Source of the DNA: an uncultured Chloroflexia bacterium
Lineage (GTDB): Bacteria; Chloroflexota; Dehalococcoidia; DSTF01; JALHUB01
Assembly: GCA_963703345.1 (NCBI GenBank)
Contig: OY969814.1
Location: 1,440,001 to 1,504,000, forward strand
DNA: 64,000 bases
Direction: 5' to 3'
Position 1 is the first letter of the stretch. Every line of letters begins with the position of its first letter. The position numbers and the translations under genes are program-made. Shown here piece by piece: positions 7,445 to 32,531 of the stretch. A model generated the notes under the pieces. That model saw only the letters and a program-made list of their open reading frames with translations, did no database searches and had not been told where the DNA came from.

Positions 7445-7967
7445 ACCTCAGAGCGGCGACCATCTGCTTTCTAGGCAGAGGGTTTGCGCTCCTCTGCCGG
7501 CATTCGGCGGTCCTCGTTTGCCACTCACCGCTCTCTCCAGATACGCACGGGATGTTGGCGCCCCACAGGGACAATCTGAGATTGCGACTTGACTGCGCGC
7601 GTTTGCTCTTGACAGTCGGTGCGTGCCCGTTACAATTCGCACCATGGGGCAAAGCAGGGACGGCTGAGCCCCAAGCGCACCCCCGCCGCTGCGCGCTTCC
7701 AGTATCATCACCAGTCACGGTTCTCGCTCAGCCGTCCCTCTCATCCTAGAGCCGTCAGCAGCGCGCTCGTCAAGGAGAGTGCTAGGGACTTGACATGGGC
7801 TCACAACGGAGCGTCACCGGGGGACAACTTAAGGCTGCGGATGCGCTACGGCATCTAGCCTTGCCAGAGGGCGCGGTTCGTCTGACATCGTCAGCCAGTC
7901 CGCGTGAAACGCCTGATCAAGGCGATGGAGCTTCTTCTGGGCTATCTGATGAGTCAAGAGAGCAGGA

Positions 7968-8435: not shown

Positions 8436-8745
8436 AGGTCTCGCTGAACCCCGTATGCCTTATTCGTATATCCCCTCGGCGCGCTTAAGGATGAGCCTGA
8501 CGTGCTCGACCTCGGCCTCGTCGGTGTGGGGTGCCAAAGGCCCATCCGTATCTGGAGGGCAGCACTCGACCCTCTTCGTGATAGGCAGCGGGTCACTCGC
8601 ACGTTGGAAGTGTGTCATGAGGGACAACGCTAGCGCCGCGGGGACCGTACCGCACACCAAGACCTGATCGTGTCGGTCCTGAAATAACTGCCTGCGGCAA
8701 AAGCCCACATTGGCGGCTCCCCACGCGTAGGCTATAATCGCATCC

Positions 8746-11574: not shown

Positions 11575-11745
11575 CTAAGGCCGGGCCTGGCGCTCGAGGA
11601 GGCGAATTCGTCGGGCGGCCCGACCTTGGGCTGGGATGGCGAACCTAGCCATCAACATCCACACTTAGTGTCTGTTTGTCCCTTGGTGCCGGTCAACCGC
11701 TTACGAATGGAACTCACTTCGTAACCGCGGCGTTGTCCAAGATCA

Positions 11746-12786: not shown

Positions 12787-12967
12787 CAGTCTCCTCCTCG
12801 CTTCGATCACTTGAGAAGCGGTCTCATCCTATTGCCTTCGCCGCATGGACACAATCGAAGGGGCACCGGCGGCTGCGCAAGACCCAATCGACTGCTTAAC
12901 GTATGATATTGCCGGCAGGACCCTGACAAATACCGCAGGCCACAATGATGCTAGGAGTCAGAGAGCC

Positions 12968-14002: not shown

Positions 14003-14364
14003 GAGCCGCGATGGAGCGCGCTCATTCCGCCATCATGCTTGCATTGCCAGACTTCCCGACATACCGGGAGTTGACTCGACGCTACCGGAGATCGACGTTT
14101 GCGTATCATGGAGCCATGACATCGGCTCTTGCTATCTGTCCTACGCTTACAGAACCACCCGTCCTATCTAATACTGAGCCGATACCGCGGCGACGGCGAG
14201 AACCCTAACCCTGTGGGATAGCGATATTCCGACGATGTGAGAAAGACAATGACCAGGATTCCTCAGCGTGCCCTTGCCCGGCGTCACGACAAACGTAGAG
14301 GCACACCAGCCCTGATGAGAGTTCCGAGAAACGCAAAGGTCTTAGCTGTTTACCGAGGTGTCTT

Positions 14365-17052: not shown

Positions 17053-17487
17053 GTCAAGCTCCAGGCTGAGTTTTCTCATGACAGATACCAGGCGGGGGCC
17101 TTTCGGCTCCCACCTGGTTTGTCAAGGCGATGGCATCTCGGTCTTGCGAAAAACACTTGAAACCAGCCTGACGCGCCGCATCCTAGCGCCGGAAGAGCCG
17201 TCTGTCATAGATTCAGCGGAGCCGGCACCGTCTTCCCTTAGTGTCTGCATCAATTGCGGAAATGTCATTTGGCCGGCCACACTTCCTGAGACGCCGTCAA
17301 TCACGGACACGCCCGAGCGTCACGCGTGGCCGCCGGTTGGAAGGCTAGTGCGGGTCCGGTGAGCTCGCGCTAGGCAAGGCGTGCGATCACAGGCACCTTC
17401 GCCGCGGAAATCGTTCAATTCCTGAGTTAGTGCGCTTGTGAAGCGGGCGACGCTATGCTAGGCTTACGGGGCGGAAGGGGTGCCAGC

Positions 17488-17967
17488 ATGTCTCCGGAGG
17501 ACAGACCGATCGCACTTGCCCAGAGGGCTAAAGAGACCCTCGCCCTATCCGGCAACTGTGCCCAGACGTCGTTCGCGGTGCTCCAGCAGGAGTTCAATCT
17601 TGAAGGCGGGGCAGTCCTCAAGGCCCTCACCCCTTTCCCCGGCATTGCCTTGCGGGGCGAGACCTGCGGGGCGGTTGTCGGGTGCCTGATGGCAATCGGA
17701 TTGGTCTACGGCAGGGACAATCTCGATGACTGGAAGGGATACATCGCCTCCCTTCCTGCCTCTCGGAAGTTCTGTCAGCGATTTGAAGAGGCACACGGCA
17801 GCACGGCATGCGCTGGCCTTCTTGAAGCCAAGCTGGGCCGAAGGTTCAATCTCGCCGACCGTGGCGACTCCCTCGAGTACGCTGCCGCCGGAGGGCCGCA
17901 GGCATGCGGCGAGATAGTTGCCAGTGCGGTTCAAATCGCCGCCGGACTGATCACGAAGAAGGGCTAG
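17488..17967 (+). CDS. C_GCAxxG_C_C family putative redox-active protein
   Basis: GNCAQ, GETCGAVVG, GSTAC, late Cys. Confidence 0.88.
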   Translation: MSPEDRPIALAQRAKETLALSGNCAQTSFAVLQQEFNLEGGAVLKALTPFPGIALRGETCGAVVGCLMAIGLVYGRDNLDDWKGYIASLPASRKFCQRFEEAHGSTACAGLLEAKLGRRFNLADRGDSLEYAAAGGPQACGEIVASAVQIAAGLITKKG

Positions 17968-18288
17968 CCTCCGCATAACAACCTCGTCGCCTAGCCGCTG
18001 CGCGGCTGCTACCTGATCTTCCGAATCAGGCGGCCTGTCTGCTTGTAGAGCTGCCGGCGCACGAGGTGGGCGCCTATGCGCCGCGGGCGGCCGCTAGCGA
18101 TGATGCTCGCCGTTTGTCAGCAGGCCAGCGAGGGCGAACAACTTGCGGCTCACATCGCTCCTCCTTTAGCCTGCCCGCCAGCGCCTCCTGGCGTACCAGC
18201 CGCCCGCCGCGAGGACAGCGGCGGCATGATGCGAGGCGAGAACGCCGTCGCCAGCGTCTACATCCTCTCGCTGTGACGCGTTGGACGC

Positions 18289-19056
18289 TTAGCTCACGCT
18301 GGTCAGGCAGTAGAGGTTCGTCTTTTTCGTGTGCTGATAGAAGCCCTGCTCGCACATCGCCGGTGTGCCGTCAGCTGGCGAATCGACGCCTGCGATCAGC
18401 GTGAACGTCTTGCCGTCGGAAACGTACCAGTAGCCGTTGGTAATGGGATCTCCGTTCGGATCGCTCGGTATCGGGTCAAGGTAGTCCTTGATCTTGCAAA
18501 GAGTGTCCAGGCCCACGTAGCCGCACCCCGATTGGATATCTCCGTCGGTGCTGGGGAATTCGCCCTTGTCGGTCCTGTATTGGTCCAGCGCGACTCCGAT
18601 CCTATACAAATCGGAGGCCCGCGTTTGGTCGCGCGCGCGTGCCACAACGTCCGGCATAGCAGTCGGTCCCAGCGTCGGCGAAACGTGCGCCGCTTCGACG
18701 GTAGAACCGAATCCTTCCGCCGGCTGCGCCTGATTCTGAGGCTTAGCGCTGGTCGGGCCACCTGACGCCAGGTCCAGCGCCAGTGCGATGACGATGACGA
18801 GGATGACCGCCGCCACGGGTGTGTACGGGAGCCATTTGCGCCATTGTTGTCGCGAGCTGCCGGCACCCACGGCGTCGGCGAAACGTGCGCCGCTTCGGGT
18901 GGAGCGAATCACCTCTGGCGGCTGCGCCTGATTCTGTGGCTTCGCGTTCGTTGGATCGCCATGCGCCAGATAGAATGCCAGCGCGATGAGGATCACGAGG
19001 ATGACCGCCGCCACAGGTGTGTACGGGAGCCAGTTGCGCCATCGTTCTCGCGACAC
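18289..19056 (-). CDS. Membrane-anchored protein with duplicated TM segment and a GspG/pilin-like C-terminal domain
   Basis: Two WLPYTPVAAVILV repeats; ARDQTRASDL...ALDQYRTDKGEFP...YLDPIPSDP resembles a pseudopilin head; AGGAGG SD. Confidence 0.65.
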   Translation of the reverse strand: MSRERWRNWLPYTPVAAVILVILIALAFYLAHGDPTNAKPQNQAQPPEVIRSTRSGARFADAVGAGSSRQQWRKWLPYTPVAAVILVIVIALALDLASGGPTSAKPQNQAQPAEGFGSTVEAAHVSPTLGPTAMPDVVARARDQTRASDLYRIGVALDQYRTDKGEFPSTDGDIQSGCGYVGLDTLCKIKDYLDPIPSDPNGDPITNGYWYVSDGKTFTLIAGVDSPADGTPAMCEQGFYQHTKKTNLYCLTSVS

Positions 19057-19323
19057 GTCATCCCCCTCCTAACATACCCGCGACGCTGGCACCATTTTCC
19101 CGCATCGGACGCACTCGATACATTAGGGCTGCCCCTTACTTTTGCTCCGAGCGGGCGCTGGTGGCGCTCAGACGCGCTACAATCCGGCCGGTGCCTTCTT
19201 CGGGACGCCGCATGACGACGGCGGGGATGATGGGGCTGGGCCGGCAAACGCGATCATGTTCAGGCCGCGAGTCGCGGCAGTGGCAGGCTGACTAGGTTGG
19301 GGGGTGTCGTTCTTCCCGCCGGG

Positions 19324-19491
19324 TTAGGCTTGTCGCTGCTGGAACCCGCTTACGGACATCGCCAGCGCCACGACCCAGCCAATGAACGTCCAACCGAGAA
19401 ACAAGTTGAGAATGAGAATAGACGCCGCGTGCGGATGACTCCTCCCGAAGGCAACGAACGTAGGCGCGAAATAGAGGGCGAGCAGCAACAC
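19324..19491 (-). CDS. Superinfection immunity protein (T4 Imm-like, 55 aa, absent from ORF track)
   Basis: Manual translation ...LYFAPTFVAFGRSHPHAASILILNLFLGWTFIGWVVALAMS; the YFxP and NLFLGWTxIGW motifs are diagnostic. Confidence 0.85.
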   Translation of the reverse strand: MLLLALYFAPTFVAFGRSHPHAASILILNLFLGWTFIGWVVALAMSVSGFQQRQA

Positions 19492-19837
19492 GACGAGTAC
19501 TAAGCCTCCTTCTTGTTAGCGGGAACGCTAGACAGCGGGATTTCTGAGACGAGGAACTAATGCGCCAAGTATAGCGCTGGCGAAGCGTTTGTCAAGCGGG
19601 CGCACAAAAAGCATAGAGGGTGCTGCTGGGCAAAGCCAATCGATCGTCACCATTTCCGGATGGTGATGCCTCGCAGACCGGAAACGACAGAGCATCTGAC
19701 TCCGAGGCAGAGGGCCTTGGGAGTGACCGCAGACGTCGGGAAACGAAGGTTGGGGGAGTGAGGTCCCGCCACAACCATCTCTTGGCGAAGGCGGCCACGA
19801 TTCCTGTCCCTGGTGTGGCTTGGTCCTTGCGGGTGGC

Positions 19838-22800
19838 CTATTCCGGGCGGATCTCTGCCGCGAGTCGGATGCCCTGCACGTGGTCCGAGTTGAGGAATGT
19901 ATCTCGGAGCGATCCGTCGCTGAGTCTGGCGGCTACTCCCTCAATGACGGCGATTGCATCCCGATAGGCTTGGAGGGCATCGTCGGGCCTCCCCTGGGCC
20001 TTTCGCAGGTTTCCCAGGGCGGCCTGAGTCTTCCAGAGCTGGGGCGGGTTGCCGACCTGCTGGGCGATCTCTAGGGCCGTGGCAAGCTCCTTCTCCGCCT
20101 CCGGCAGCTTGCCCTGGGCCAGGAACACCTGCCCCCGTAGCCGGCAGCCCTTGACGATGTTCTTCCTGCTGTCGCTTTGTTCCGCCAGGGCCAGGCACTC
20201 GTCGGCGCAGGCAAGGGCCTTGTCGTAATCGCCCCTGACCAGCCAAAGCTCGCCGTAGCTGTGGAACAGGTGCTGGGAGTAGCGCCAGAGCATCCAGCGG
20301 TCCTGGGGCCGTGGGTTTCGTACCACCTGCTCGACCCTCTGGAACTGCTCGTCGGCCTCATCGGGGCGGCCCAGGGCTAGCAGGTTGTCTCCAAGGTTCA
20401 GGCGGGCGTTGCTTTCGCACTCAGGGTCAGGGAGGTTTGCCTCCACTGCCGCCTCGACCCCCCGCCCGTTCCACTCCATTGCCTGCTGGTGGTCCTGGAG
20501 CTCGCCGTACACCCAGCCTATGGTGTTCACGACGCGAGCCCGAGTAAAGACGTCGCCCACGCGGCCGCAGGTCGCGAGTAGATGCGCGAGGAGAGCAAGG
20601 GTCTGCTGGCAGTCTCCCCTGCCCCCACGGGCAAGGGCGTCTGCCCACTGATTCCACATGAGCGGGGTGATCTGACGGCCTTTTTCGGCGGCCCCGCGCC
20701 AGCGCTCGAGGACCTCGAGGGCTTCATTGAAGCGGCCAGCCCAGATGGACCTCAAGCTGCGGTTCACGCCCCACCAGGCCCCAGTGAGGCGATTACCAAC
20801 CTCGGGCGCCAGCTCCTCCGCCGTCCGCGTGAGGGGTTCGGCCTCAGCGTGGCGGTTGATAACCACGTACATCGAGGCGAGCTCGGAACTCGCGACGAAG
20901 CGAACGTCGTTGAAACCCTCATCGCCAATCGCCAGAGCGGCCCTCAACGTTCCCTCCGCTGTCTCGAACTCGTGGTCCCAGAACTCGCCGGCACCGCGTC
21001 GGGCGAAAGCGATCCCCTCCAGGTGCCGGTCGCCCAAGCTGCGGGCGGCCACCCGCATCCGGTCGAAGTCGGCGGCGGCGCCCGAAAAGTCCCCGATCGT
21101 GATGTCTACGAAGGCCCGGCTCAAGGCTATGGAGGCGGATACCGCAAGGGCCGACTTGCCCAGCCTCTCGCACACCTCCAGAGCCTGGGCGTAGTACTCT
21201 AGCGCGTCCTGGTTGGCGTAGGCAGCGGCCGCCTTCTCGCCGGCCTTCGCTAGGTAGTCCAGGGCCTTGTCCCACTCCTGCCCCTCGGAGTAGTGGTGGG
21301 CCAGCGCCTCGTAGTGCTCAGGCAGGCGGTCGGCGTACAGCTCCTCGATGGCCGCCGCCACGATGCGGTGGAGCGCCTTGCGCCGTCCCAGCACCAGGGT
21401 GGAGTAGGCCACGTCATGGGTGAGGGCGTGCTTGAACATATAGGACAGCTCGGGGAAGTAGGCCTTCTCGTAGATCAGCTCCAGTGATTTGAGCTCGGCC
21501 AGCAGGTCGTCCGGCTTCGCCTCGATGTCCGAGATGCGATTCAGCAGCCGCACCGTGAACTCGCGGCCGATGACGGAGGCGAGCTGGATGGCTTCCCTGG
21601 CCTGGCGCTCCAGCCGGTCGATGCGGCTGAGGATCACCTCCTGGATGGTGTCGGGCACCCGGATCTGCTCCAGGGCGCGTTCCACCGAGTAGCTACCGTT
21701 GGTCTTGCGGAGGACGCCGGATTCTACCAGAGACTTGGTGACCTCCTCGATGTAGAAGGGGTTGCCCTCCGCCTTGCTGGTGATGAGCTGCTGGAGCTGC
21801 TGGGGCAGCGTGGCCACCTGGAGCACCCGCTCTGCCATGGCGGCGCTCTCCTCCGGCGGCAGGTGGCCCAGGGCCAGGCGGCTGTAGTAGGTGCGCTCGC
21901 CCAGGGAGTGGGCGTAGCCGGGCCGGTAGGTCAGGATCAGCAGCACCGGCGCCAAGGCGACGACGTCCACCAGCGCCGCCAGCGCCTCCTCTGACATCTC
22001 GTCCACCCAGTGCAGGTCCTCCACGATCACCACTAGCGGCCGCCGGCGGCTCTCCTGGAGGAGGAGCGCCCGCAGGCTGTCGAAGACGCCGGCCCGCCGC
22101 TCCAGGGGGTCCATGACCGTCACAGCCGGGTCGCCGGGGTCTACGTTCAGCAGGTACTTGAGATAGGGGACTGTCGCCTCGGCCGCTTCGTCCCAGGGGG
22201 CCGTGCCCTCGTCAACTTTGCGGATAATGGCGGCATCATTGTCCGCCTCCTGCACGCCGAAGTTGCCCTTCAGGATGTCGATGATGGGCAGGTAGGGGAT
22301 GTTCTTGCCGTAGGAGATGCAGGGGCCTTCCAGCCAGGTGGCCGCCTCGTCTAGGATAGAGCGGCGGAACTCCAGGAGGAGGCGGGACTTGCCGATACCG
22401 GCCTCGCCCGAGACGAACACCACCTGTCCCTGGCCCCGCTTGGCCTGTTCCAGGTAGCCCCTGAGCACGGTCAGCTCCTGGTCGCGGCCGATGAAGGGGG
22501 TGAGGCCGCGCTCAGCTGCCGCTTCGAGGCGGGTGCGCACCGCCTTCTCCCCCACGGCCCTGTAGGCCACCACCGGCTCCGCTTTGCCCTTTACCGTTAG
22601 CGCCCCCAGCAGCTCGCACTCGAAGTAGTCCTGTACCGCCCGGTAGGTGTTCTTGCTCAGGTAGACCGCGCCGGGCTCGGCTAGCTGTTCCATTCGGGCT
22701 GCCAAGTTCACGGTGTCGCCCAGGGCCGTGTAGTCCATGTTCAGGCTGTCGGAGATCTTGCCGACGACCACGGGGCCGGTGTTGAGGCCGACGCGAAAGC

Positions 22801-23347
22801 GGCACTCGATGGCATGGCGCTTCTTGACCTCCGCGCCATGTTCGTCGAGGGATTTCTGCATCTCCAGGGCGGCGGCCACGGCGCGGCGGGCCGAGTCCTC
22901 GTGGGCGATAGGGGCACCGAACAGGGCCATGACGCCGTCACCCGTGAACGTCGTAACCGTGCCCTCGTAGCGGTGGACAGCCTCCATCATCCGGCTGAGG
23001 CAGGCCTGCATCAGGTCGTAGACGTCCTCCTCGTCCAAGCGCTCAGAGATAGGAGTGAAGCCCATGGCGTCTGCGAATAGGACGGTCACTGTGCGGCGTT
23101 CGCCTTCCAGCGCGGCGCGGTCGTGGAGAATCTTCTCGGCCAGGTGAGGCGGTGTGTAGGTAAGGGGATCCAGAGCGGGGACCCCCTTCGAGGGCTCAAC
23201 TACGCGATGGCCGCAGGAGTCGCAAAAGAGAGCTGCGCGCCTAAGCTGTGCCCCGCAGCTCGTGCAGACATCTACCAGGGCTGCGCCGCATTGGTCGCAG
23301 AAGGATGCCGTTTCACGATTGTCGTGGCCGCACGAACGGCACAGCAT
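19838..23347 (-). CDS. Double zinc ribbon + class III adenylate/guanylate cyclase + AAA/STAND ATPase + TPR protein
   Basis: Four CxxC, TVLFAD, FTGDG, GDTVNLAAR, GEAGIGKS, EDLHW, GNPFY, TPR tail. Confidence 0.93.
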   Translation of the reverse strand: MLCRSCGHDNRETASFCDQCGAALVDVCTSCGAQLRRAALFCDSCGHRVVEPSKGVPALDPLTYTPPHLAEKILHDRAALEGERRTVTVLFADAMGFTPISERLDEEDVYDLMQACLSRMMEAVHRYEGTVTTFTGDGVMALFGAPIAHEDSARRAVAAALEMQKSLDEHGAEVKKRHAIECRFRVGLNTGPVVVGKISDSLNMDYTALGDTVNLAARMEQLAEPGAVYLSKNTYRAVQDYFECELLGALTVKGKAEPVVAYRAVGEKAVRTRLEAAAERGLTPFIGRDQELTVLRGYLEQAKRGQGQVVFVSGEAGIGKSRLLLEFRRSILDEAATWLEGPCISYGKNIPYLPIIDILKGNFGVQEADNDAAIIRKVDEGTAPWDEAAEATVPYLKYLLNVDPGDPAVTVMDPLERRAGVFDSLRALLLQESRRRPLVVIVEDLHWVDEMSEEALAALVDVVALAPVLLILTYRPGYAHSLGERTYYSRLALGHLPPEESAAMAERVLQVATLPQQLQQLITSKAEGNPFYIEEVTKSLVESGVLRKTNGSYSVERALEQIRVPDTIQEVILSRIDRLERQAREAIQLASVIGREFTVRLLNRISDIEAKPDDLLAELKSLELIYEKAYFPELSYMFKHALTHDVAYSTLVLGRRKALHRIVAAAIEELYADRLPEHYEALAHHYSEGQEWDKALDYLAKAGEKAAAAYANQDALEYYAQALEVCERLGKSALAVSASIALSRAFVDITIGDFSGAAADFDRMRVAARSLGDRHLEGIAFARRGAGEFWDHEFETAEGTLRAALAIGDEGFNDVRFVASSELASMYVVINRHAEAEPLTRTAEELAPEVGNRLTGAWWGVNRSLRSIWAGRFNEALEVLERWRGAAEKGRQITPLMWNQWADALARGGRGDCQQTLALLAHLLATCGRVGDVFTRARVVNTIGWVYGELQDHQQAMEWNGRGVEAAVEANLPDPECESNARLNLGDNLLALGRPDEADEQFQRVEQVVRNPRPQDRWMLWRYSQHLFHSYGELWLVRGDYDKALACADECLALAEQSDSRKNIVKGCRLRGQVFLAQGKLPEAEKELATALEIAQQVGNPPQLWKTQAALGNLRKAQGRPDDALQAYRDAIAVIEGVAARLSDGSLRDTFLNSDHVQGIRLAAEIRPE

Positions 23348-24417
23348 ACGTCCCGCCGATCTTCCGCGTTGCATCGGAAGCTTTCGCGGACGCACCGATC
23401 TTGCATCAGGCTAAGAGAAATGTCAAATGTGGCGACGCCCGAAAAGTTGCCCCTTCAGACGGGTCCCGGCCCCATGGCTCCAATTGGGATCGTCAGACTC
23501 TTGCCGGGCTAACGATTAGCCGCACGATGCACGCTTAGTGTGCGTTGGAGGGCACGATTAGGTTGTTCGCTGTCTGACTGCTGGACTAGAAGTCCGCGAC
23601 CACCATGCGCTGTGCTAAACAGGTTCAGGAGGCTACCGGCAGTGAGCGAAGGGCGTCCAGTTACACGGTGAAACTATGCTCCCCGCGCTGCGACCGCCAC
23701 ATCCTCCGTAGAGACTACTGGTGAACAGCGGCCGGCAGAATCCGTGAATCCTTCACACCTATTTCACGGGATCTCCCCTGGTCTCCACACTGAACGGCAC
23801 ACTTGGCGCCCAAAATTGGTTATGGCCCGCCTGATGGATCCCCGTCCGGTGTTGGGGCTGCTGGCCGGCGGGTTAGGAGCGCCTTGCATCGCGGGACGTG
23901 CACTCCGTTGAGTGCGGTTCTTATACGGAACGGTGAAGGTGCAGTCGCATCCGTGTTCGCCGCGGCGACAAGGTTGACACGGGATTGAGCCGAAAATGGC
24001 ACCGTCTTTCGAGAGCGGAGCCTCCTTGGGTCGTCAACAACCCGGCTCGCCCGTCGCGTCCTCGCGGCATCCTCACAGCGAAGGGAGGAGGTGATGGCTC
24101 AGATGCGCTGACTTAGGGCGGGCGAGGCCCGCGGCTCCTGTGCTAGCTCCGGTAGCCCTGGTTTCTACGTCGAGTCGCCGTCGTCCTTGCATCGCTCTAC
24201 CTCATCGAGCAGGATCATTATCGGCGTCGCTGAGTTGCGGACGACGTGCTTCTTCATGGTCGCGGCCAGGGCGTCGAGCCATTGCCGCCTCACCTTGTCA
24301 CCTCCGTCAGCGAGACGATTTCCCCCAGCGTCACGACCGGCGGGAGGCCGGGGGAGTCGCACCGATAGCGCCAGCCGAGCATCCGGCCGATCCGCTGATC
24401 TTGGGCAGCGGTCAAAC

Positions 24418-24514
24418 GTCGCCGGGTCCGAGACGAGTTGCGGGGCTGCGCGGGTCATCGCTATACTTGGATGCGATGCGGCGGTAGCTCAGCGGTAGAG
24501 CTCCTGCCTTCCAA
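24418..24514 (+). repeat. 97-bp direct repeat copy 2, containing a second tRNA-Gly 5' half (24478-24514); attL of the 5.7 kb element
   Basis: GCGGCGGTAGCTCAGCGGTAGAGCTCCTGCCTTCCAA; identity to the tRNA stops right after the anticodon loop; G5-to-C change. Confidence 0.95.
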
Positions 24515-24681
24515 ACAGTTGTTCGCAAGCGCTGTCCGTCAAACTCGCGAACTCTCACCGAAAACCCCACAGTTATCGACTGTCCCATAGTGTCTTCCAG
24601 CGACACCTCGATTTCGGCAAGTGGCGTCTCATCCACGCAAACATAACTGACCCTGCTATTTGTCCGTACAATGCTGGCCCC

Positions 24682-24710
24682 TTGACCCTGCCCTCTCGCA
24701 GCCTTAACCT
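24682..24710 (+). promoter_or_regulatory. Sigma70-type promoter for cargo genes
   Basis: TTGACC-N17-TAACCT. Confidence 0.5.
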
Positions 24711-24763
24711 GCCACTCACTGAGGCGCCATATCCGCCATGTCGTTGCCCAGAAAGGTCAACAA

Positions 24764-25162
24764 TTGGACCGCGGCACAATAGCCCTACTCGCTATCGGGG
24801 CGGGTTTCCTGCTCTTAACGGCCTTCCTATCGAACCTCCCCCAGCTACTGCGCGGCATCTCCCGTCTCGGCGCGCTACTCGAAGACACGCTCTTCCTCGC
24901 CGACGCCCATCAATTCGAACAGGAACTTGACAATCTCTTCTCTGGGTTCGACCCCGGCACCGAGAGAGCAAACACCATCCAAACCGTGAACGCCGAGCGA
25001 AAACGCGCTGACGATGCCTTGACGGACGCTCTCCCGCCCGAATACCGCTGCCCCTACTGCTCCGGAGTCATGCGGAGGCGCACCGGAAGACACGGTCCCT
25101 TCTATGGCTGCAGCAACTACCCGCAGTGCCGTTATACCAAGGATTCACCCCTCACATCTTGA
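24764..25162 (+). CDS. Membrane-anchored protein with topoisomerase-type C4 zinc finger
   Basis: N-terminal hydrophobic helix; CPYCSGVMRRRTGRHGPFYGCSNYPQC. Confidence 0.8.
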   Translation: MDRGTIALLAIGAGFLLLTAFLSNLPQLLRGISRLGALLEDTLFLADAHQFEQELDNLFSGFDPGTERANTIQTVNAERKRADDALTDALPPEYRCPYCSGVMRRRTGRHGPFYGCSNYPQCRYTKDSPLTS

Positions 25163-25163
25163 A

Positions 25164-26399
25164 ATGAGAGAGAAATACCAACGCCGCCTTGCCGAACTCC
25201 GCGACTTGCTCTCCCAACTTCACACGGAGCGCGTGCAATTTGATGCCTACGTGGCCCAGGCCCGGAGGGGATTCCAGGCTTATCTATCTGACCAAAAGCT
25301 AGATTTGCACGCGTCCCGCCAGCTACTGACGTCCCACGAAAAGCAATTCCGCGACAAACAGGAAGCCGTTGAGAAACGGCTTCGCGCGAGAGAAGACGCC
25401 CTTGAGCAACTCACCCAACAGAAGACAGAAGGCTTCCCCTGGCTAGCCCAAGCGTATGCCGAGTTTCTCCGCTTGCAGGATAAGAAAGACGAATCATCCT
25501 TGAGAACCAAAACACGCCCGGCCATCAAGGCTGCGGACACCCTTAGGGAAGCATCACGGGCAAAGCGAACGGCTGAGAAGAAGGCAAAGGTCCTCGAGTA
25601 TGTACTCAGATACTACGAAGCACTCTTCCCTTGGCTTTCCGACCTTAGAGGCGAGGACGTTGATGACCTTCTAATCGCCATCACGACGGAGAAACAGCAA
25701 GAGGCTGACACAGAAGTCGAAGACGCCGCACGGCAATGGCTCACAGAGGCAGAGTATTCCTCCTTACCGGTTGCCGAGAAATGCCAGCTTGCGCTAGACC
25801 GCTATTGGAAAGGCAGAAAGCGCCCTTGGCAGCTCGGTAGGGATTACGAGAGATATGTCGGCTTCCGCTACGAAGAGCAGGGCTTTGCAGTGTACTACCA
25901 AGGCATCGTCGAGGGGCTAGAGGATCTAGGTCGCGATCTGTTAGCCACCAAAGGCAATTGTGTAGATGTTGTTCAGTGCAAGTACTGGTCCAAAGACAAA
26001 ACGATACACGAGAAACACGTCAATCAGCTCTTTGGCACGGCGATGGCCTACCGGATAGATCATCCGGATAAAGAGGTCATTCCGGTCTTTTACACTTCCA
26101 CCTGTCTGTCGCCTAGGGCCAAGCAGTTCGCTGACATGCTCAGTGTAACGTATTTCGAGAATGCCCCTCTGTCCCCGTACCCCTGCATTAAATGCAACGT
26201 CTCACGCAAGGATGGCACGAAGATATACCATTTGCCCTTCGACCAACAGTATGACCGCACTATCATCGAACAAGAGCGACTTGAGTGCTACGTTGAGACC
26301 GTCGCAGAGGCCGAAGCTCTGGGCTTCCGCCGAGCATTCCGCTGGAGGGGTGGACAGACTACTGCTGGATCTTCCGAGGCACCAAACCCTGGCCACTGA
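25164..26399 (+). CDS. Coiled coil + Mrr-like PD-(D/E)xK restriction endonuclease with small C-terminal metal-binding-like domain
   Basis: GRDYERYVG...DLGRDLL...VVQCKYW (Mrr-type QxK); IKCNVS...IYHLP...EAEALGFRRA tail. Confidence 0.82.
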   Translation: MREKYQRRLAELRDLLSQLHTERVQFDAYVAQARRGFQAYLSDQKLDLHASRQLLTSHEKQFRDKQEAVEKRLRAREDALEQLTQQKTEGFPWLAQAYAEFLRLQDKKDESSLRTKTRPAIKAADTLREASRAKRTAEKKAKVLEYVLRYYEALFPWLSDLRGEDVDDLLIAITTEKQQEADTEVEDAARQWLTEAEYSSLPVAEKCQLALDRYWKGRKRPWQLGRDYERYVGFRYEEQGFAVYYQGIVEGLEDLGRDLLATKGNCVDVVQCKYWSKDKTIHEKHVNQLFGTAMAYRIDHPDKEVIPVFYTSTCLSPRAKQFADMLSVTYFENAPLSPYPCIKCNVSRKDGTKIYHLPFDQQYDRTIIEQERLECYVETVAEAEALGFRRAFRWRGGQTTAGSSEAPNPGH

Positions 26400-26411
26400 G
26401 CCTCTAAGGGG

Positions 26412-26537
26412 CCGTCGCAGAAATCGCTCCGGCCCGTGAACTGCAGCTTCGGTTCCCGCACCCGCACGTCAAGGGTCCCGATGGCTGCGCCACGCGCTTC
26501 ACGCGCCCTTGACCCGCTACCCAGTTACCCCTACCCT
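26412..26537 (+). repeat. Conserved noncoding hairpin/promoter element, copy B; candidate single-strand origin or ssDNA promoter
   Basis: GTCAAGGG(26468)...CCCTTGAC(26513) inverted repeat whose right arm is the -35 of TTGACC-N17-TACCCT. Confidence 0.75.
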
Positions 26538-26647
26538 CAGGTAAGTGAACATCCGCCACCAGAGCCCGCGCGAGTACGCTGCCACAACGCGAGCTCAACA
26601 AGAAACCGCCGCCTCATCTATCTGAAGAAGAGGGGTACACTACACGC

Positions 26648-27238
26648 GTGTCTGGCGATAGTACCGACGACCTCAGGCCAACTATTAAGGTCACAGCCGT
26701 CATACTCCTGGAGGTCCTGGGATCCGTTCTGCTGGCAGTCGCAGCTCCATGGAAGCAACATCGCCAACTGATCGTAGTCGGAACCTTCGACCAGCTACTT
26801 GGGGTATTCCTTCTTGCATGGCCTGACCTGGAAAACCAAGCTCTCAGGGCATTTACGGTAAGCCGCCGCGCCTGGGCCAATTTCGTACGTTGGTACCCGA
26901 CAGCTTGGCGACGAGCACGAGAGGAAGTCAAATGGTGGTTCCGGCAACGCGCTGAGACGGCGGCCAACTGGTATCGCCAGCTCAGAGGCCGGCCACGATC
27001 AATGACCGTCAGACTTCCGCCAGCGACGCTTCACCTTAGCGCTGGCGTATCTGCCACGTTAACACGCGGCGGAACAATAGCTGATAGGCTCCAACGCCTC
27101 GAAAACGACGTCGCCCGACTCCCAGCTCAATGGCGAAATGACATGATCAATCTGCGCGATAGGCGCGTCCAACTCCGCTGGTATGGAGTGCCATTAATCC
27201 TGACCGGGGTCGTTCTTCTCAGTTGGGCGACCTGGTAG
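26648..27238 (+). CDS. Hypothetical membrane protein (element cargo)
   Basis: Three hydrophobic segments; GAGGGG SD; downstream of the element promoter. Confidence 0.6.
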   Translation: MSGDSTDDLRPTIKVTAVILLEVLGSVLLAVAAPWKQHRQLIVVGTFDQLLGVFLLAWPDLENQALRAFTVSRRAWANFVRWYPTAWRRAREEVKWWFRQRAETAANWYRQLRGRPRSMTVRLPPATLHLSAGVSATLTRGGTIADRLQRLENDVARLPAQWRNDMINLRDRRVQLRWYGVPLILTGVVLLSWATW

Positions 27239-28250
27239 CCCAGCTTCGTACAGCGGGCACCTTGCCAGGCTCGGCTTCCCGTCCTTTAGCCGCGCCTTCT
27301 AGCATCGTCCGGTGCTTAGATTTCAATCTTGACTCACCGCTCTTCACCGTTTCCAGCAAGAAGCCAATGTCGCCCCCATCGTCCTTAACGATCATAGCCG
27401 CAGTGGGACCACACGTAGTCTTAAACCACTTTCGCCTCTGTTCGAGAGTCGGCAAAGGTTTCGGAGCATACACCCCCTGTTCTTTCTCAGCTGAGCCTAC
27501 CAGTGCCTCGAACCAGCCCAAGCGTGGGCAGCGCCTCGGCTTCTCATCAACTGTCCGATCCACGAACTCGACCATCTGCAGCAGCCGTTCTGCCCACACC
27601 TTTCCCCAACGCTCAAGAACGAGCCTCTTCAGCATTCTTTCCGCTGCGTCGTCACGTACTTGGAGCTCCCATCTCGTAGCCGGAATGAGCCCTCCGCTTT
27701 GCTCGTCCTTGTCATAGACTCGCAACTTCTGCCTTGAGCCCTTGCCCCCTCCATATACGGTCATCCCGCCATGAAGCGTTTCGTCACGAGTCCAGTTCCC
27801 TTCGAGGATGTGTGACGACCAGTCTCCCCTATCCAGTGCTTCCCATACGTCCTTGGCTCGAACAATCTTGTTGAAGTCGTCCGCTGCCAAGTCGATTCGC
27901 GAGGCCTTCGCCCCTTTTGCGTCGAGCCACCCTAGAAGACCGCGCATCTGCGCTTCCTCCATCGACTGGCAGATATCGCCCTTTAGCTGCACATGGATTT
28001 CCGGCCTGTGTGCCGACCACATGATGGCCGCGCCACCAGGCGCGATTCTCTGATTCTCATAGTAGGAATTCCCCCGCTCAGCTGTTGTGAAATCGAACCC
28101 GATGTATCCTGACACCACCCTCTCGACTTCCCGCAGCTCCACTTCCCAGAGGCTGGGCTCGAGCCAATCAACAGAGAACACCAATGGATTTTCTGCCCCC
28201 CTGTTAGTACGCTGGGGGCAGCTGGCCGCGTCGCGATCAGCTTCGCTCAT
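27219..28250 (-). CDS. Rep_trans-family replication initiator / MOBT relaxase
   Basis: SVDWL, SRIDLAADD, TVYGG, LRVYDK (catalytic Tyr), RWELQ motifs. Confidence 0.9.
   Translation of the reverse strand: MSEADRDAASCPQRTNRGAENPLVFSVDWLEPSLWEVELREVERVVSGYIGFDFTTAERGNSYYENQRIAPGGAAIMWSAHRPEIHVQLKGDICQSMEEAQMRGLLGWLDAKGAKASRIDLAADDFNKIVRAKDVWEALDRGDWSSHILEGNWTRDETLHGGMTVYGGGKGSRQKLRVYDKDEQSGGLIPATRWELQVRDDAAERMLKRLVLERWGKVWAERLLQMVEFVDRTVDEKPRRCPRLGWFEALVGSAEKEQGVYAPKPLPTLEQRRKWFKTTCGPTAAMIVKDDGGDIGFLLETVKSGESRLKSKHRTMLEGAAKGREAEPGKVPAVRSWATRSPN
28194..28220 (-). other. nic site hairpin (oriT / double-strand origin)
   Basis: Minus strand TGCCCCCAGCGTACTAACAGGGGGGCA matches the C-run/CTAACA/G-run nic of ICEBs1 and Tn916, inside the 5' end of the relaxase gene. 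Confidence 0.85.
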
Positions 28251-28489
28251 CGCTTCCGCCGCCTTGCTTTCACGGACGCCAATGCTAGGCGCGCGAAATG
28301 CGCCTTGCGCGCCGCCTCGGCGCGCAAAGCGCGTTCGTTCGCCGGGAGCTTGCCCTCTGGGTCAATCAGGCGCTCGAAGCGCGATTCGAAGGCCGCTCGT
28401 GCGGGAGCAGTCGCTGCCGCCCTATCTCCCGTACCAGCCCACCGAGTGTATGACGCTATTCGCGCTCTGAGACTCACTTCGCCGCTCAT
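28247..28489 (-). CDS. Small basic conserved hypothetical protein of integrative elements
   Basis: SLRARIASYTRWA..DR.AATAPARAAF..RFE..IDPEG; ATGA overlap with rep. Confidence 0.75.
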   Translation of the reverse strand: MSGEVSLRARIASYTRWAGTGDRAAATAPARAAFESRFERLIDPEGKLPANERALRAEAARKAHFARLALASVKARRRKR

Positions 28490-28588
28490 CGTCCAACCAG
28501 CCCACAAACCCAATCGGCCACCTTCGACATGCATCGAAGATAGCCGACGCCCTGACCTAGCGGCGCATCGAAAACGCCCGTTATTCGA

Positions 28589-29176
28589 TCAGACCTGTTT
28601 TACGCTCGCCACCCCCTCTGCCAACTCCTGAGGCAAACCGTTCAAGCAGTATGGGCAGTACTTTGACTCGTGTGCTCTTTTCCCCCGCGCCGCTCCCGCC
28701 CTCGCCTTCACACGCTCATCCATCTCTCCCCAAGTATCTACGACTCGCCTGATCCACTTGATATTGCACGCCTTCAGCATCGTCACAATCAGGTCGTAAT
28801 CAGTCACCCCCTCTTTCTCACGAAGATGAGCAATTAGCATGTCCACCCCCGACCCCTTCCTCCTGCCGGACCGCACCGGTCCTGCTTCCGCGATCGAGGC
28901 CAACAACTCTTCTTCCCGCCCCTTCGCTTTGGCCCAATTCGATACTATCTCCCATTCTCCGTTCTCGTTGAGCCCCGCCACCAGGAAATTCCCCGATACG
29001 CTCGCCACCCAAAGCGAGAATCGCCATAGAGGCAGCGCTTGAATCTCCTCCAACGTGAACTCTGTCGGCTCCTCAAGCGACAGCGTCTTGTTGAAGTATT
29101 TCTTACTCTGAATCGGCAGGAGTTTCCGCCTCAGCTGAATCCGGTAGCGAATGAACAGGCCGTCCGACCTAGTCAC
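28589..29176 (-). CDS. Hypothetical protein coupled to the integrase
   Basis: GTGA overlap with integrase stop; C-terminal CPYC. Confidence 0.65.
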
Positions 29177-30120
29177 AGCCTGTCTCCTAAGCCTAGACGT
29201 CGATGCGCCGCTTGAGCCCGCTCGTCAGCTGTCGAAGCTGCGTACCGCTGAACCATCGTTCGCGAGCGCCAGCCAGTGAGACGCATTAGGTCGCCCTCCG
29301 TACCGCCCTGCGAGAGCCAATCATGGGCGAACGTATGCCGCAACTGATGAGGGTGAATGTCACCCAATCCAGCCTGCCGGCCACGCTGCTTTATCATCTG
29401 GTAAATGCCCGTGTCGCCAAACTGACCCTTATGACCCACCCATAGCCAAGGTGATGACGCTGAAGGATGCTGCTTGCGCTTCCTCAGATAACGGTCAAGG
29501 GCCTTCACAGCCTTCGCTCCGATAGGTAGCACCCGCTCCCGTCGCCCCTTCCCAAGAACCCGGATCAAGCCCCTATCTAGGTCAACGTCGCTATTCTCCT
29601 CATCTTTGGCGTTGTACCGCAAACCGCCAATTTCCGCTCGACGCGCACCGGTGTCGATGAAAATGCGCAGTATCGCCGTGTCGCGCCGGTCCTCCAAACT
29701 GCCGCCCTTTTCACACGTTGCCAGCAGCGCTTTCAACTCCTCCTCGCGCAGCACAGGCGGAGGGTTCTCAGGGACCCGAGGCGGCTTCATCTTTGCCATC
29801 GGTGACTCCCTAACCTCGCCCTCTTCATCCAGCCACTTGAAGAACGATTGTAGTCCGCGATATCGATTGTTCGCTGTCGCAGGCTTCCACCGCTCCAACA
29901 AGTAGGCAATGAAACTCTCAACATGCTCTCGCCGAATCTTCGCTACCTCTTGCGGCATTCCCTGATCAGCTAGGAATCCGGCCAACTGCCGCGCGCTCTC
30001 CAGGTACGTGTCAATCGTCCTTGCAGACAGATTCTCCGCCCGTAGATGGCGCCCAAAGCTCTCGATGTTACCTACGATATCGCCCTGTGCTATACTTCTT
30101 GCGGCTATGGACTCGCGCAT
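29173..30120 (-). CDS. Tyrosine recombinase / integrase
   Basis: TGARRAE (R), GKGRRER (K), HPHQLRH (HxxR), LTGW...MVQRY (Y); AGGAG SD; TTGACG-N18-TATAAC promoter at 30186-30157. Confidence 0.95.
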
Positions 30121-30226
30121 CTGCCACTCCTATCGCTAGCTCTCGCACTTGCGCTAGTTATAGGGTATTCGAGCGGTGTTCGTCAAGAGGAAATCAGTTA
30201 GAGACTGTAGCCAGCTTCGAAAGCGA

Positions 30227-30301
30227 GCGGGGGTAGCTCAGCGGTAGAGCTCCTGCCTTCCAAGCAGGATGTCGCGGGTTCGAACCCCGTCCCCCGCTCC
30301 A
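30227..30301 (+). tRNA. tRNA-Gly(UCC), intact, CCA encoded
   Basis: Cloverleaf: GCGGGGG/CCCCCGC acceptor stem, CCTGC-CTTCCAA-GCAGG anticodon arm, GGTTCGAACC T loop, TCCA end. Confidence 0.97.
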
Positions 30302-30313
30302 ATTCGCCAGATA

Positions 30314-30342
30314 CGAAGCCGAGCGAATCGCCCGGCTTTCTT
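30314..30342 (+). terminator. Hairpin/terminator after tRNA
   Basis: AAGCCGAGCG-AAT-CGCCCGGCTT followed by TCTT. Confidence 0.55.
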
Positions 30343-30353
30343 GATGGAGTAGC

Positions 30354-32216
30354 ATGAGCGCAGCCCAAGTCAATGCCACCGAGGGCGAGGCCGTCCGAAA
30401 GAACATCCGCAACATCGCGATCATCTCCCACGTCGACCACGGCAAGACTACGCTGGTCGACGCAATGCTGCGGCAGACCGGCGTCTTCCGCGAGAACCAG
30501 GAGGTCGTCGATCGGGTGATGGACTCGAGCGACCTCGAACGCGAGAAGGGGATCACGATTCTGGCCAAGAACACGTCGGTGCGGTTTGGCCGGTACAAGA
30601 TCAACATCGTCGATACGCCCGGACATGCCGACTTCGGGGGTGAGGTGGAGCGCACGCTGAAGATGGTGGACGGCGTGCTGCTGCTGGTCGACGCCAGTGA
30701 AGGGCCGCTGCCGCAGACGCGCTTCGTGCTGAAGAAGGCGCTGGAACTGGGACTGCCGCCGATCGTCGTGATCAACAAGATCGACCGGAAGGACGCGCGG
30801 CCGCAGGAGGTGCTGGACGAAATCTACGACCTCTTCATCGACCTCGACGCGCACGAGTCCCAGCTCGATTTTCCTGTGCTGTACACGATCGCGCGCGGCG
30901 GCGTCTGCCGACTGACGCCCGACGGCGAAGACCATCGCCTCGAGCCGCTGTTCAAGGAGATCATCCGGTCGATTCCGGCGCCGCGCTATCAGCCGTCGAT
31001 GCCGCTGCAGATGCTGGTGCTGAATCTCGATTACTCGGATTTTGTCGGACGCCTGGCGGTGGGACGTGTCGTCAACGGGCGCCTGCGCGCGAAGCAGGAC
31101 GTGGCGCTTGTGCGCGAGGGCGGCAGCATCGATCGCGCCCGGGTAACCTATCTGTACACATTTGAGGGGCTGGAGCGCGTGGAAGTGACCCAGGCAGGGC
31201 CGGGAGAGATCGTGCAACTGGCGGGATTCGACGAGGTGAACATCGGGGACACGATCACTGACGCAGATGACCCGCGGGCGCTTCCGCGTGTGATTATCGA
31301 CGAGCCGACCGTGAGCATGATGTTTTCGATCAACACGTCGCCCTTCGCGGGTCAGGAGGGACGGTTCGTAACGTCGCGAAACCTGAAGGACAGGCTGGAG
31401 CGGGAGGTGCTCACGAACGTGGCGCTGCGCGTCGAGCCGGGCGACTCGGCGGATAACTTCAAGGTGTCGGGCCGCGGTGAGTTGCAGATGGCGATCTTAA
31501 TCGAGACGATGCGGCGCGAAGGGTTTGAGCTGTCGGCCAGCAAGCCGCAGGTGATAACCCGCGAAATCGATGGCGTAGTGCACGAGCCCATGGAGCACCT
31601 GGTGATCGACTGCCCGGATGAGTACGTGGGTATCGTGTCGCAGAAGATCGCCATCCGCAAGGGGCGCATGACGAACATGGTGAACCACGGCACGGGCCGG
31701 GTAAGGCTGGAGTTCCGCATCCCATCGCGAGGACTCATCGGCTTCCGCAGCCAGTTCCTGACGGACACGCGTGGCACCGGTCTACTGAACCACCTGTTTG
31801 ACGGGTATAAGCCATGGCAGGGAGACATCGAGCATCGCACGAACGGCGCGCTGGTGGCGGATCGCACGGGCGCGGTGATGGCGTACGCTATGGAGCAGGC
31901 GCAGGAGCGCGGGGAGATCTTCGTCGAGCGGGGGGAGCGCGTGTACGAGGGGATGATCATTGGGGAGAACGCGCGTGAGAGGGATATCAACCTCAACATC
32001 ACGAAGGAGAAGAAACTCACCAACATCCGCTCGTCAACATCGGATATTGCGGTGCAACTGCTGCCGGTGCGGCGCATGTCGCTAGAGCAGGCGCTGGAGT
32101 GGATCGCCGAGGACGAGATGCTGGAGGTAACGCCGAAGAGCTTGCGACTGCGAAAGCGGCTGCTCGCGGCAAGCGAGCGAGCAAGCGAGCGGGCGAGGGA
32201 CGCGCGGCGGGACTAG
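30354..32216 (+). CDS. typA: Translational GTPase TypA/BipA
   Basis: [42 protein letters not shown]. Confidence 0.97.
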
Positions 32217-32266
32217 GAAGTGCGGGCTCGTGTTACTATCCTGACGAAAGCAGAAGGAGGGACACG

Positions 32267-32347
32267 ATGGGACGCAAGGATAAGGGCGGCAAGAAGGTCA
32301 AGAAGCCAAAGCAGGAGAAGATCAAGAAGGCGCCGAACGCGAAGTAA
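32267..32347 (+). CDS. 26-aa Lys-rich peptide
   Basis: AAGGAGG SD, MGRKDKGGKKVKKPKQEKIKKAPNAK. Confidence 0.6.
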   Translation: MGRKDKGGKKVKKPKQEKIKKAPNAK

Positions 32348-32486
32348 GGCGATGTCGATATCCTGGACGACGCAGCTGACAAGACCGGTCGAGATGGAGC
32401 CCGGGCGACATGCGGGAGCGGAGCCTGGCGGAAGATCCGGCGTCATCCTAGGTTTATCGGCTGCACTTGAGTCGGTTACTCCGTTT

Positions 32487-32531
32487 CTTCCAAGCAGGAT
32501 GTCGCGGGTTCGAATCCCGTCCCCCGCTCCA
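32487..32531 (+). pseudogene. 3' half of tRNA-Gly(UCC), att-site remnant
   Basis: CTTCCAAGCAGGATGTCGCGGGTTCGAATCCCGTCCCCCGCTCCA equals 30257-30301 except one T-loop base. Confidence 0.95.

Follow-up and report, generated by a model that had tools for sequence, protein, structure and literature searches.

The 64,000-nt stretch of DNA analysed here (the window) holds a 5,749-bp element that displaced the 5′ half of the genome's sole tRNA-Gly(TCC) gene and rebuilt that gene. The anticodon loop is the likely place of recombination, and transcription of the rebuilt tRNA likely starts from a predicted promoter antisense to codons 1–18 of the element's own integrase gene (int).

Attachment sites and limits of the element

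Positions 24478–24518 and 30227–30267 are identical at 39 of 41 positions with a start-to-start spacing of 5749, and the two mismatches fall at tRNA position 5 and at position 38, just past the anticodon loop. The right-hand copy begins the intact tRNA-Gly(TCC) (attR, 30227–30301, + strand), the only tRNA that ARAGORN calls in the window and the only tRNA-Gly(TCC) among the 54 tRNA calls of the whole genome. This gene consists of an element-borne 5′ half and a host 3′ half, with the core at 30257–30263. The left-hand copy (attL, 24478–24514, + strand) is the displaced 5′ half, which runs through the anticodon loop and has a G5→C change in the acceptor stem. A host-type tRNA promoter, TTGCGG-18-TATACT, is stranded at attL (24438–24467, + strand), and 10 nt separate the end of its TATACT −10 element (24462–24467) from the 5′ fragment. 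The place where identity ends points to a crossover in the 7-nt anticodon loop. The P′ arm of the attachment site (24515–24600, + strand) is conserved after the 5′ fragments of related elements, with AGCGCTGT at +14 and CAGTTATC about 55 nt from the core. It is 84–88% identical to the arms of the elements in the relative G002 and at tRNA-Gly(CCC), and its sequence also adjoins 3′-type Val fragments.

The stranded promoter type lies directly before the intact tRNA in the element-free relatives G001, G003, G004, G005, G006 (two copies), G007 and G008, and G016 has the same −10 before its tRNA. The same upstream acyltransferase genes are found near the element-free tRNA of G008. The DNA at 30121–30226 is common to G002 only, which carries a 6358-bp sister element with an 87% identical integrase and its own distal 5′ half. 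A first-pass annotation of this DNA had described a 5.7-kb unit, with different DNA upstream of 30227, that replaces the host tRNA promoter and 5′ half and leaves both, including the native TATACT, at the far end. Each part of that description agrees with the repeat match and spacing and with the empty sites, where seven relatives (plus the −10 of G016) have the displaced promoter in place of the DNA found here. As in the islands sought by Islander-type searches, a tyrosine integrase gene lies between the tRNA and its end fragment, the 5′ fragment is upstream on the same strand at 5749 bp (2–200 kb being allowed), and in relatives with an empty site the intact gene bears the flank that is displaced here. 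The same genome holds another such element, now decayed, at tRNA-Gly(CCC) (G000:2237080–2241657), and two of its three glycine tRNAs have element DNA in front of them.

Two other pieces of tRNA-Gly bear on the limits of the element. At 5985–6085 (+ strand), a second host promoter and a perfect 5′ half, together 101 nt and 98% identical to 24418–24518, are followed by another P′ arm; this copy is either an older attL or an alternative excision end of a 24.2-kb composite. At 32487–32531 (+ strand), outside the 5.7-kb element, a tRNA-Gly 3′ half behind typA closes a separate 2.23-kb integrase-free typA cassette. The 3′ half at 32487 and the perfect 5′ half at 6045 have a core in common and typA is patchy in the family (9/17), which would suit an element that is larger or oppositely bounded, either bringing its own whole tRNA (24515–32487, typA included) or forming a 24.2-kb unit from the 5′ half at 6045. 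Such limits are very improbable, because G007 has the promoter, tRNA and typA in succession without an integrase, G002 has the sister element, tRNA and typA with no 3′ half after typA, and most homologous elements carry a 5′ half only. Excision might alternatively release the 24.2-kb unit, but this would not be the original one. No sequencing run was found to span the stretch, but the notion of an assembly artefact or chance repeat is scarcely credible and is refuted by the same architecture in the independent genome G002, at the second locus in this genome and at 18 isoacceptors. No attP joint was present in the 7 DNA sequencing runs examined of 11 (all contigs, with small shares). A single 24501→30227 joint in run X5 has just 26 nt on one side and was not counted.

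Gene content and mode of transfer

The element has seven ORFs, with int, orf195, orf80 and rep on the − strand and three cargo ORFs on the + strand. The int/orf195 and orf80/rep pairs each overlap by 4 nt and the orf195–orf80 gap is 99 nt, in keeping with the earlier picture of a compact, partly overlapping int-orf195-orf80-rep run with cargo on the opposite strand. int (29173–30120) encodes a 315-aa tyrosine integrase (PF00589, E 2e-28; SAM-like domain) that consists of core-binding and catalytic domains and contains R160, K191, H258, R261, W284 and Y293; a domain search detected no N-terminal arm-binding domain. The best phage integrase match is 37% identical (Kromp), and XerC, XerD and integron types were ruled out because those models scored far below their cut-offs. 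The gene is intact and lies head to head with the tRNA, its start 106–107 nt away, just as the divergent integrase adjoining an intact tRNA had first been described. The coupled orf195 (28589–29176) is 49% identical to its G002 counterpart, and profile searches found no family for it (best Atlas value 0.76). orf80 (28247–28489) starts at an ATG at 28489 inside a 95-aa ORF and encodes a conserved small protein (phrog_2842, E 7e-12) with homologues in G002, G042, G063 and L114 and in Atlas clusters without a name. rep (27219–28250) encodes a 343-aa Rep_trans rolling-circle initiator/relaxase (PF02486, E 9e-22; motif-III Tyr at residue 179) with a match to GstRep (4CIJ, E 2e-5) and best plasmid Rep matches of 25–29%.

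The cargo encodes a 132-aa protein with a topoisomerase-type C4 zinc ribbon (24764–25162; PF01396, E 3e-12), an Mrr-like restriction endonuclease domain protein (25104–26399; PF04471, E 3e-6) that is possibly defensive, and a 196-aa membrane protein with no family match above cut-off (26648–27238). PADLOC gave no match for the cargo. A structured non-coding stretch beyond the rep end (26410–26495) is repeated at about 7035–7120 (80% over 86 nt) and is a candidate single-strand origin. Searches of Pfam, PHROGs and NCBIfam with the seven ORFs, as distinct from shorter alternative-frame ORFs, matched no capsid, Zot or conjugation family, as the first-pass annotation had stated, and the ORFs scanned contain no satellite or filamentous hallmarks (capsid, terminase, primase, Zot-like).

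A predicted nick site (dso/oriT) within the rep 5′ end places CT′AA in the loop of a GC-rich hairpin (28195–28219, − strand); the segment folds as a hairpin, is the single pattern match in the 2.28 Mb genome, and its CT′AA motif recurs in the L058 and L061 elements. Because the Rep_trans gene carries this hairpin, rolling-circle replication or mobilisation is likely, and the predicted site favours a rolling-circle IME-like element whose excised circle would be replicated, or mobilised by a helper, through nicking by Rep_trans. Alternatively, the element may move as an integrative rolling-circle plasmid, or as a phage satellite in helper particles, instead of as a conjugatively mobilised IME, which would leave the 5′ attachment unaffected. 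The element lacks a detectable coupling protein and the N-terminal HTH of ICE-type MOBT relaxases, PF02486 being the sole domain match in Rep; no VirB4 or coupling-protein families and no T4SS markers were found in this genome (95.85% complete); and in relatives the same integrase is accompanied by capsid, terminase or Prim-Pol genes (L062, L164, L063). These points make plasmid or satellite transfer a serious but rather unlikely alternative, given that the element itself has no satellite hallmark genes, that streptococcal Rep_trans/MobT IMEs without a coupling protein are described (PMC5704250), and that NicK is likewise described without an HTH (PMC6499999). The G002 sister element is without Rep_trans, and replication and transfer modules therefore vary around the integrase.

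A predicted tRNA promoter inside the integrase gene

The predicted replacement promoter of the tRNA, TTACCT-17-TATACT with an extended −10 TG, lies at 30068–30096 (+ strand), in int codons 9–18 and 130 nt before the tRNA. A predicted int promoter, TTGACG-18-TATAAC (30157–30186, − strand), converges with it and overlaps the P-arm motifs. A stock promoter scan returned one site, at chance level, and missed both the host promoter and the embedded one; therefore an approximate E. coli sigma70 matrix was used for scoring, with a score of ≥8 defined as strong on the basis of the first locus set. Tried on this locus, the tRNA-directed score is 13.6 for the int-embedded promoter, 9.7 for the host promoter and 2.2 for the int–tRNA gap.

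The same measure was applied across the integrase family to 5′-type loci, where int is head to head with the tRNA 5′ end, and to ordinary 3′-type loci. An antisense int promoter scoring ≥8 is present in 24/36 5′-type versus 2/28 3′-type loci, and the Mann-Whitney p of 2e-8 overstates this difference because the 5′-type integrases may be one clade and the loci are then not independent. This count left out the duplicates L108 and L142, the distant or partial loci L103, L115, L116, L119, L120, L121 and L122, and 19 loci without a tRNA near int. Control windows further inside int reach ≥8 in 3 of 254 cases, and 14 of the 24 strong promoters sit at an identical offset from a conserved codon. The held-out set gave a weaker result, with 4/8 5′-type versus 1/10 3′-type loci and medians of about 8.2 versus 6.4. 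In the decayed Gly(CCC) element, int codons 1–57 survive with an embedded promoter score of 16.7, and nearness to the tRNA would likewise lead one to expect this retention.

The element could be of the 5′ type and the tRNA nonetheless owe its transcription to read-through or to a promoter within the 106-nt gap that is weak or not of the sigma70 type, with the antisense motif acting solely as an int regulator or arising as a by-product of the protein sequence. Twelve of the 36 5′-type loci score <8 for the antisense promoter, as this account would allow, but just 4/36 have a tRNA-directed score of ≥8 in the gap, and the gap at the present locus falls well below both the host and the embedded promoter. 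As for read-through, even the closest cargo gene on the + strand stops 3 kb upstream, with four genes of opposite orientation in between. Most strong matches share one codon phase, which fits a by-product, yet the antisense motif outscores synonymous-codon shuffles (p ≤ 0.05) in 22/33 5′-type versus 2/28 3′-type loci. In 3′-type elements such a promoter would be antisense to the tRNA and selected against, and this alone could give the contrast between the types. Taken together, these points leave a gap promoter or read-through improbable, and the embedded promoter is the preferred source of the tRNA.

Transcribed from 30068–30096, the pre-tRNA would carry a leader about 125 nt long, which RNase P would trim. 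Because the predicted tRNA and int promoters converge, their transcripts would share an overlap of about 48 nt that takes in the ribosome-binding site and start codon of int, and int expression would be damped. Loss of the front of int would then silence an essential tRNA and could not be borne by the host. Because of G5→C in the displaced half, the tRNA restored by clean excision at 24478 would have a C-C mismatch (C5-C68) in its acceptor stem. The "element control" of tRNA-Gly(TCC) proposed in the first-pass annotation would follow from this predicted promoter.

Orientation in the integrase family and related systems

Homologous integrases from the same order are head to head with a tRNA 5′ end in 15 of 17 cases, which are all 15 that have a neighbouring tRNA. 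The 92 family loci include 36 distinct 5′-type loci at 18 isoacceptors, mostly from Chloroflexota with two Actinomycetota records, and 35 ordinary 3′-type loci. At 22 of the 36 5′-type loci there is a distal 5′ half that stops at tRNA positions 38–43, and none was found for the other 14, six of which have ≤5 kb downstream; no 3′ half was found on the integrase side of any of the 36. The proposal that homologues always lie upstream of intact tRNAs thus holds at the order level (15/15), with the distal half in 22/36, and fails for distant members at 3′ sites, so that the family has both orientations. The integrase trees need 7–8 orientation changes (quick tree of 63 rows, five partial rows left out). 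Repeated flipping of orientation is not supported, since starred branches force only one change and the AU test gives p = 0.50 for one origin (57 rows, without the outgroup, two long rows and the N-terminal columns); the 5′-type integrases may be one clade. Cargo is not regularly placed under the host tRNA promoter, since in the 21 other bounded elements the attL-adjacent genes point either way. Integrase remnants with only an N terminus offer few clean cases; the truncated G590 and G571, one per orientation, are both near contig ends.

Bacterial anticodon-centred 5′-fragment sites were reportedly labelled "class IB" by Williams in 2002. Islander lists 159 5′-fragment islands among 3919 (PMC4383910); the orientation, first put down as rare in bacteria, is therefore uncommon but already known, there and in archaeal pTN3. 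The element resembles the Islander 5′-fragment islands in its tyrosine integrase, likely anticodon-loop crossover and 5′ fragment upstream of the gene, whereas the passages of PMC4383910 on such islands describe no integrase group or promoter mechanism, and here one family occupies 36 loci at 18 isoacceptors. The pTN3/TKV4-like integrases of Thermococcales are described as likewise using a tRNA 5′ half as attB (with a 41-bp shared block) and as cutting the rebuilt tRNA off from its own promoter, leaving it dependent on element DNA, as predicted here (PMC8371274, PMC5495485). In the same accounts, the pTN3 attP lies within int, integration breaks that gene in two and the int promoter itself serves the tRNA; here int is whole (315 aa) and points away from the tRNA, and the predicted antisense promoter in int is separate. 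Firmicutes Rep_trans/MobT IMEs such as IME_Sag2603_tRNAlys are similarly small, with a tyrosine integrase, a tRNA target and no mating-pore genes (PMC5704250, PMC6499999, PMC9371924), and share PF02486 with the motif-III Tyr and a CT′AA nick in a GC hairpin (PMC9371924; predicted here). Those described at tRNAs use the 3′ end instead of the 5′ end, and the present, putatively mobilisable element differs further in its Dehalococcoidia host and in having no HTH and no TcpA. Tying an essential host tRNA function to an element, as would be the case here, recalls the tRNA-dependent lysogeny of Fionnbharth, but phages of that type are described as destroying the host gene and supplying a complete tRNA elsewhere, whereas the present element restores the gene at its own site from a half (PMC10865867). 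A literature search, without the examples of Williams 2002 and Mantri & Williams 2004 or supplements, turned up no paper about this group of integrases and none about a promoter antisense within int. What is new here is the predicted sigma70-like, tRNA-directed promoter antisense within integrase codons 9–18.

Island finders and the textbook picture have the element bring the tRNA 3′ end while the host keeps the promoter. One tentative reading, somewhat short of an even chance, joins the observations into a widespread, apparently undescribed bacterial group of short tyrosine integrases without an arm domain, whose attP has been flipped to tRNA 5′ halves. The antisense promoter in the first codons would keep an essential tRNA on, silence int by overlapping antisense transcription and, with decay of the displaced half, bind the host without a toxin. 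Integrase-free cassettes, typA among them, would also be shuffled by these integrases on both sides of tRNA genes, forming integron-like arrays in Chloroflexota. The use of 5′ ends at at least 18 isoacceptors, beside 3′-type relatives with homologous att arms, offers a natural comparison for the flip of attP and the promoter problem that comes with it. Chloroflexota are not known to have genetic systems, and these short integrases, with their many tRNA targets, could be developed as tools for the phylum. The embedded promoter, if real, would be a compact, toxin-free means for an element to be hard to lose and to autoregulate its integrase.

Boundaries of the island and empty sites in relatives

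The window covers positions 1440001-1504000 of contig C1 in this genome (G000). ARAGORN and Rfam identify a single tRNA in the region, tRNA-Gly(TCC) at 30227-30301, which is the sole Gly(TCC) among 54 tRNA calls genome-wide. A copy of its first 41 nt (39/41 identical, spacing 5749) stands at 24478-24518 behind TTGCGG-18-TATACT, which bears out the first-pass annotation that the promoter and tRNA 5′ half had been displaced to the far end. Identity between the copies breaks off at position 38, placing the end of the common block at the anticodon loop (24508-24514 / 30257-30263). The minus strand between the copies encodes a 315-aa tyrosine integrase (int, 30120-29173) with six of six catalytic residues, orf195, orf80 and a 343-aa Rep_trans protein. 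The plus strand encodes a zinc-ribbon protein, an Mrr-like nuclease and a membrane protein, and the annotated layout of int, orf195, orf80 and rep with cargo on the opposite strand was therefore correct. G+C in 1-kb windows is 55-60% within the element versus 61-67% in the flanks. The 5,749-bp element qualifies as a tDNA island by the Islander-type criteria that were tested and is almost certainly a real 5′-type island, with int head-to-head with the tRNA.

The tRNA-Gly(TCC) gene was sought in 10 close relatives. An intact tRNA lies behind a TTG-N17/18-TATACT or TAGAAT promoter in G001, G003, G004, G005, G006 (two copies), G007 and G008, the promoter in element-free relatives ending ~10 nt upstream of the tRNA. 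The G016 tRNA has an identical -10, and the G009 copy is truncated at the contig end. G007 has the order promoter-tRNA-typA without an integrase, and over 83 nt the promoter there shares 88-90% identity with 24436-24518 and 6003-6085. The DNA upstream of 30227 was checked as a conserved empty-site context and is not one; among these relatives only G002 has element-type DNA there. The G002 sister element (6358 bp, int 87%) carries its own promoter and 5′ half at the distal end. Together with the empty-site promoters, it marks 24478 as attL, made up of the host's promoter and 5′ half, and 30227 as attR, which joins an element 5′ half to the host 3′ half. Tandem duplicated membrane genes at 1873-5840 (559- and 564-aa ORFs), putatively acyltransferase-like, flank this tRNA locus on the left, an arrangement conserved in G002 and G008.

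The attachment-site core recurs in two further fragments. One, at 5985-6085, is a second promoter plus perfect 5′ half, followed by a P′ arm of its own (the attachment-site arm after the half); the other is the 3′ half at 32487 that terminates the typA cassette. The fragments at 6045 and 32487 could be alternative recombination partners. Because the 24478 half carries a G5->C change, a tRNA rebuilt by excision at that half would contain a C-C mismatch in its acceptor stem; a perfect gene would result from excision at 6045. The G5->C change may itself be an assembly error.

The 5985-6085 promoter and half head an 18.4-kb integrase-free stretch (6086-24417), and similar integrase-free, promoter-carrying 5′ cassettes occur in G006 (L186, L190). 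A type IIG restriction-modification gene lies at 8746-11574 (PADLOC E 4e-259); a gene 85% identical to it belongs to the cargo of the sister element in G002 and, in G003, comes after a 5′ half. A 2.23-kb integrase-free cassette (30302-32531) between the tRNA and the second 3′ half holds the sole complete typA/bipA of the genome. TypA is found at E<=1e-100 in 9/17 family genomes, twice in tandem in G016, and in relatives 3′ halves of Gly(TCC) or Gly(CCC) flank it. Behind typA in this genome, the sequence for a 26-aa lysine-rich peptide (32225-32388) is found again at G000:1892061-1892209 (93%) as well as in relatives. Elsewhere in this genome (G000), tRNA-Val(TAC) 3′-half arrays lie at G000:C1:1252833-1258635, 1919358-1921910 and 1981943-1981990, most halves adjoining the element's P′-arm motif in flipped orientation relative to the tRNA. 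The tRNA-Asn 5′ end occurs three times (28 nt each, 103-nt spacing) at G000:C1:1810855-1811088, just upstream of tRNA-Asn.

Predicted promoter of the rebuilt tRNA

The 106-nt gap between int and the tRNA contains an int-directed sigma70 match (TTGACG-18-TATAAC, 30186-30157) and no tRNA-directed one (best score 2.2 versus 9.7 for the host promoter). The best tRNA-directed match, TTACCT-17-TG.TATACT (30068-30096, score 13.6), sits within int and spans codons 9-18, numbered from the ATG with a Shine-Dalgarno sequence. Predicted starts at ~30103 (+) and ~30150 (-) would yield transcripts that overlap across the int start codon.

All scores come from a single matrix of approximate E. coli sigma70 frequencies. 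By this matrix, scores of >=8 occur in 24/36 5′-type loci, 2/28 3′-type loci (int co-directional with the tRNA) and 3/254 control windows, and the contrast between types is inflated by kinship of loci. The offset from a conserved codon is identical in 14 of the 24 high-scoring 5′-type loci, and in 11 of these 14 an RBS and start precede the motif. Compared with versions in which the same 35 codons were synonymously shuffled, 22/33 5′-type and 2/28 3′-type loci reached p<=0.05. Held-out loci point the same way with a weaker contrast (4/8 versus 1/10), and 12/36 5′-type loci lack a strong embedded motif. A decayed 4,502-bp element of the family at tRNA-Gly(CCC) (L064, G000:C1:2237080-2241657) has lost most of int and retains codons 1-57 with an embedded promoter copy scoring 16.7; it also contains a 38-codon typA remnant. 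The sequence evidence makes it probable that the full mechanism, including the embedded tRNA promoter, operates.

Replication and comparison with known systems

Rep matches PF02486, phrog_453 and GstRep 4CIJ and carries the motif-III tyrosine reported in PMC6499999. A GC hairpin at 28219-28195 presents CT'AA in its loop, a pattern that PMC9371924 gives as the nick site of the ICEBs1/Tn916 oriT and pT181-family dso. The pattern occurs once genome-wide and in 2/3 related Rep_trans elements. These features make rolling-circle replication of the excised circle likely. Searches of the element revealed no HTH, coupling protein or packaging gene, and those of the genome detected neither VirB4 nor a T4CP family. 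The element would work like a Rep_trans IME (PMC5704250), with putative mobilisation.

The annotation's view that this orientation is rare in bacteria agrees with published accounts: Islander lists a 5′ fragment in 159/3919 islands (PMC4383910), and 5′-half use is seldom met in bacteria (PMC8371274; PMC5495485). The latter sources describe pTN3-like archaeal integrases that use the tRNA 5′ half, the tRNA then being transcribed from the integrase promoter. The element is not pTN3-like because its int is intact. It also differs from tRNA-dependent lysogeny, in which a whole phage tRNA replaces the destroyed one (PMC10865867). 5′ fragments at bacterial tDNA islands are already known; in a literature search covering mainly open-access papers, neither this integrase group nor an antisense tRNA promoter within int turned up, and an earlier description may exist.

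Integrase family and attachment orientation

Within the order, 13 of 93 genomes have an integrase match, at 17 places in all; within the phylum, 43 of 401 do. Scanning all genomes by pattern yielded 34 loci. The annotation's expectation that homologues sit at tRNA 5′ ends holds at order level, where int is head-to-head with an intact tRNA 5′ end in 15/17 places; the other two lack a tRNA call, one stopping ~100 nt from a contig edge. It does not extend to the wider family. The joint set of 92 loci comprises 37 head-to-head (36 distinct), 36 co-directional (35 distinct) and 19 without a nearby tRNA. A distal 5′ half lies 2.6-13.3 kb off in 22/36 head-to-head loci, ending at tRNA positions 38-43, and none of the 36 has a 3′ half on the integrase side; an ordinary distal 3′ half is present in 12/28 close co-directional loci. 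The 5′-type targets 18 isoacceptors, or 20 with the held-out set. Single tRNA genes flanked by integrases on both sides occur at L149 (G479), L058 (G045) and L232 (G654); at L149 the downstream integrase is 3′-type and a 5′ half is found 5.4 kb upstream.

Both types share short att-arm motifs and a distance of ~60-190 nt between int and the element-borne tRNA half; the tRNA half is thus the only part that is flipped. Trees require 7-8 orientation changes, and a single origin of the 5′-type is not rejected (AU p 0.50). Cargo of 5′-type elements includes SMODS/DncV-like nucleotidyltransferases (L114:13433-16644) and a capsid with a HipA-like kinase with DUF3037 (L062:5740-8733). In 21 other bounded elements (150/151 ORFs scanned), the modules include Rep_trans (3), RepSA/G2P-like (3) and primase/helicase types (at least 4), with a capsid in one and a terminase in one. 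Because replication modules differ between elements, the sequence comparison argues that the 5′ trait is a property of the integrase-att module, not of a Rep_trans element type.
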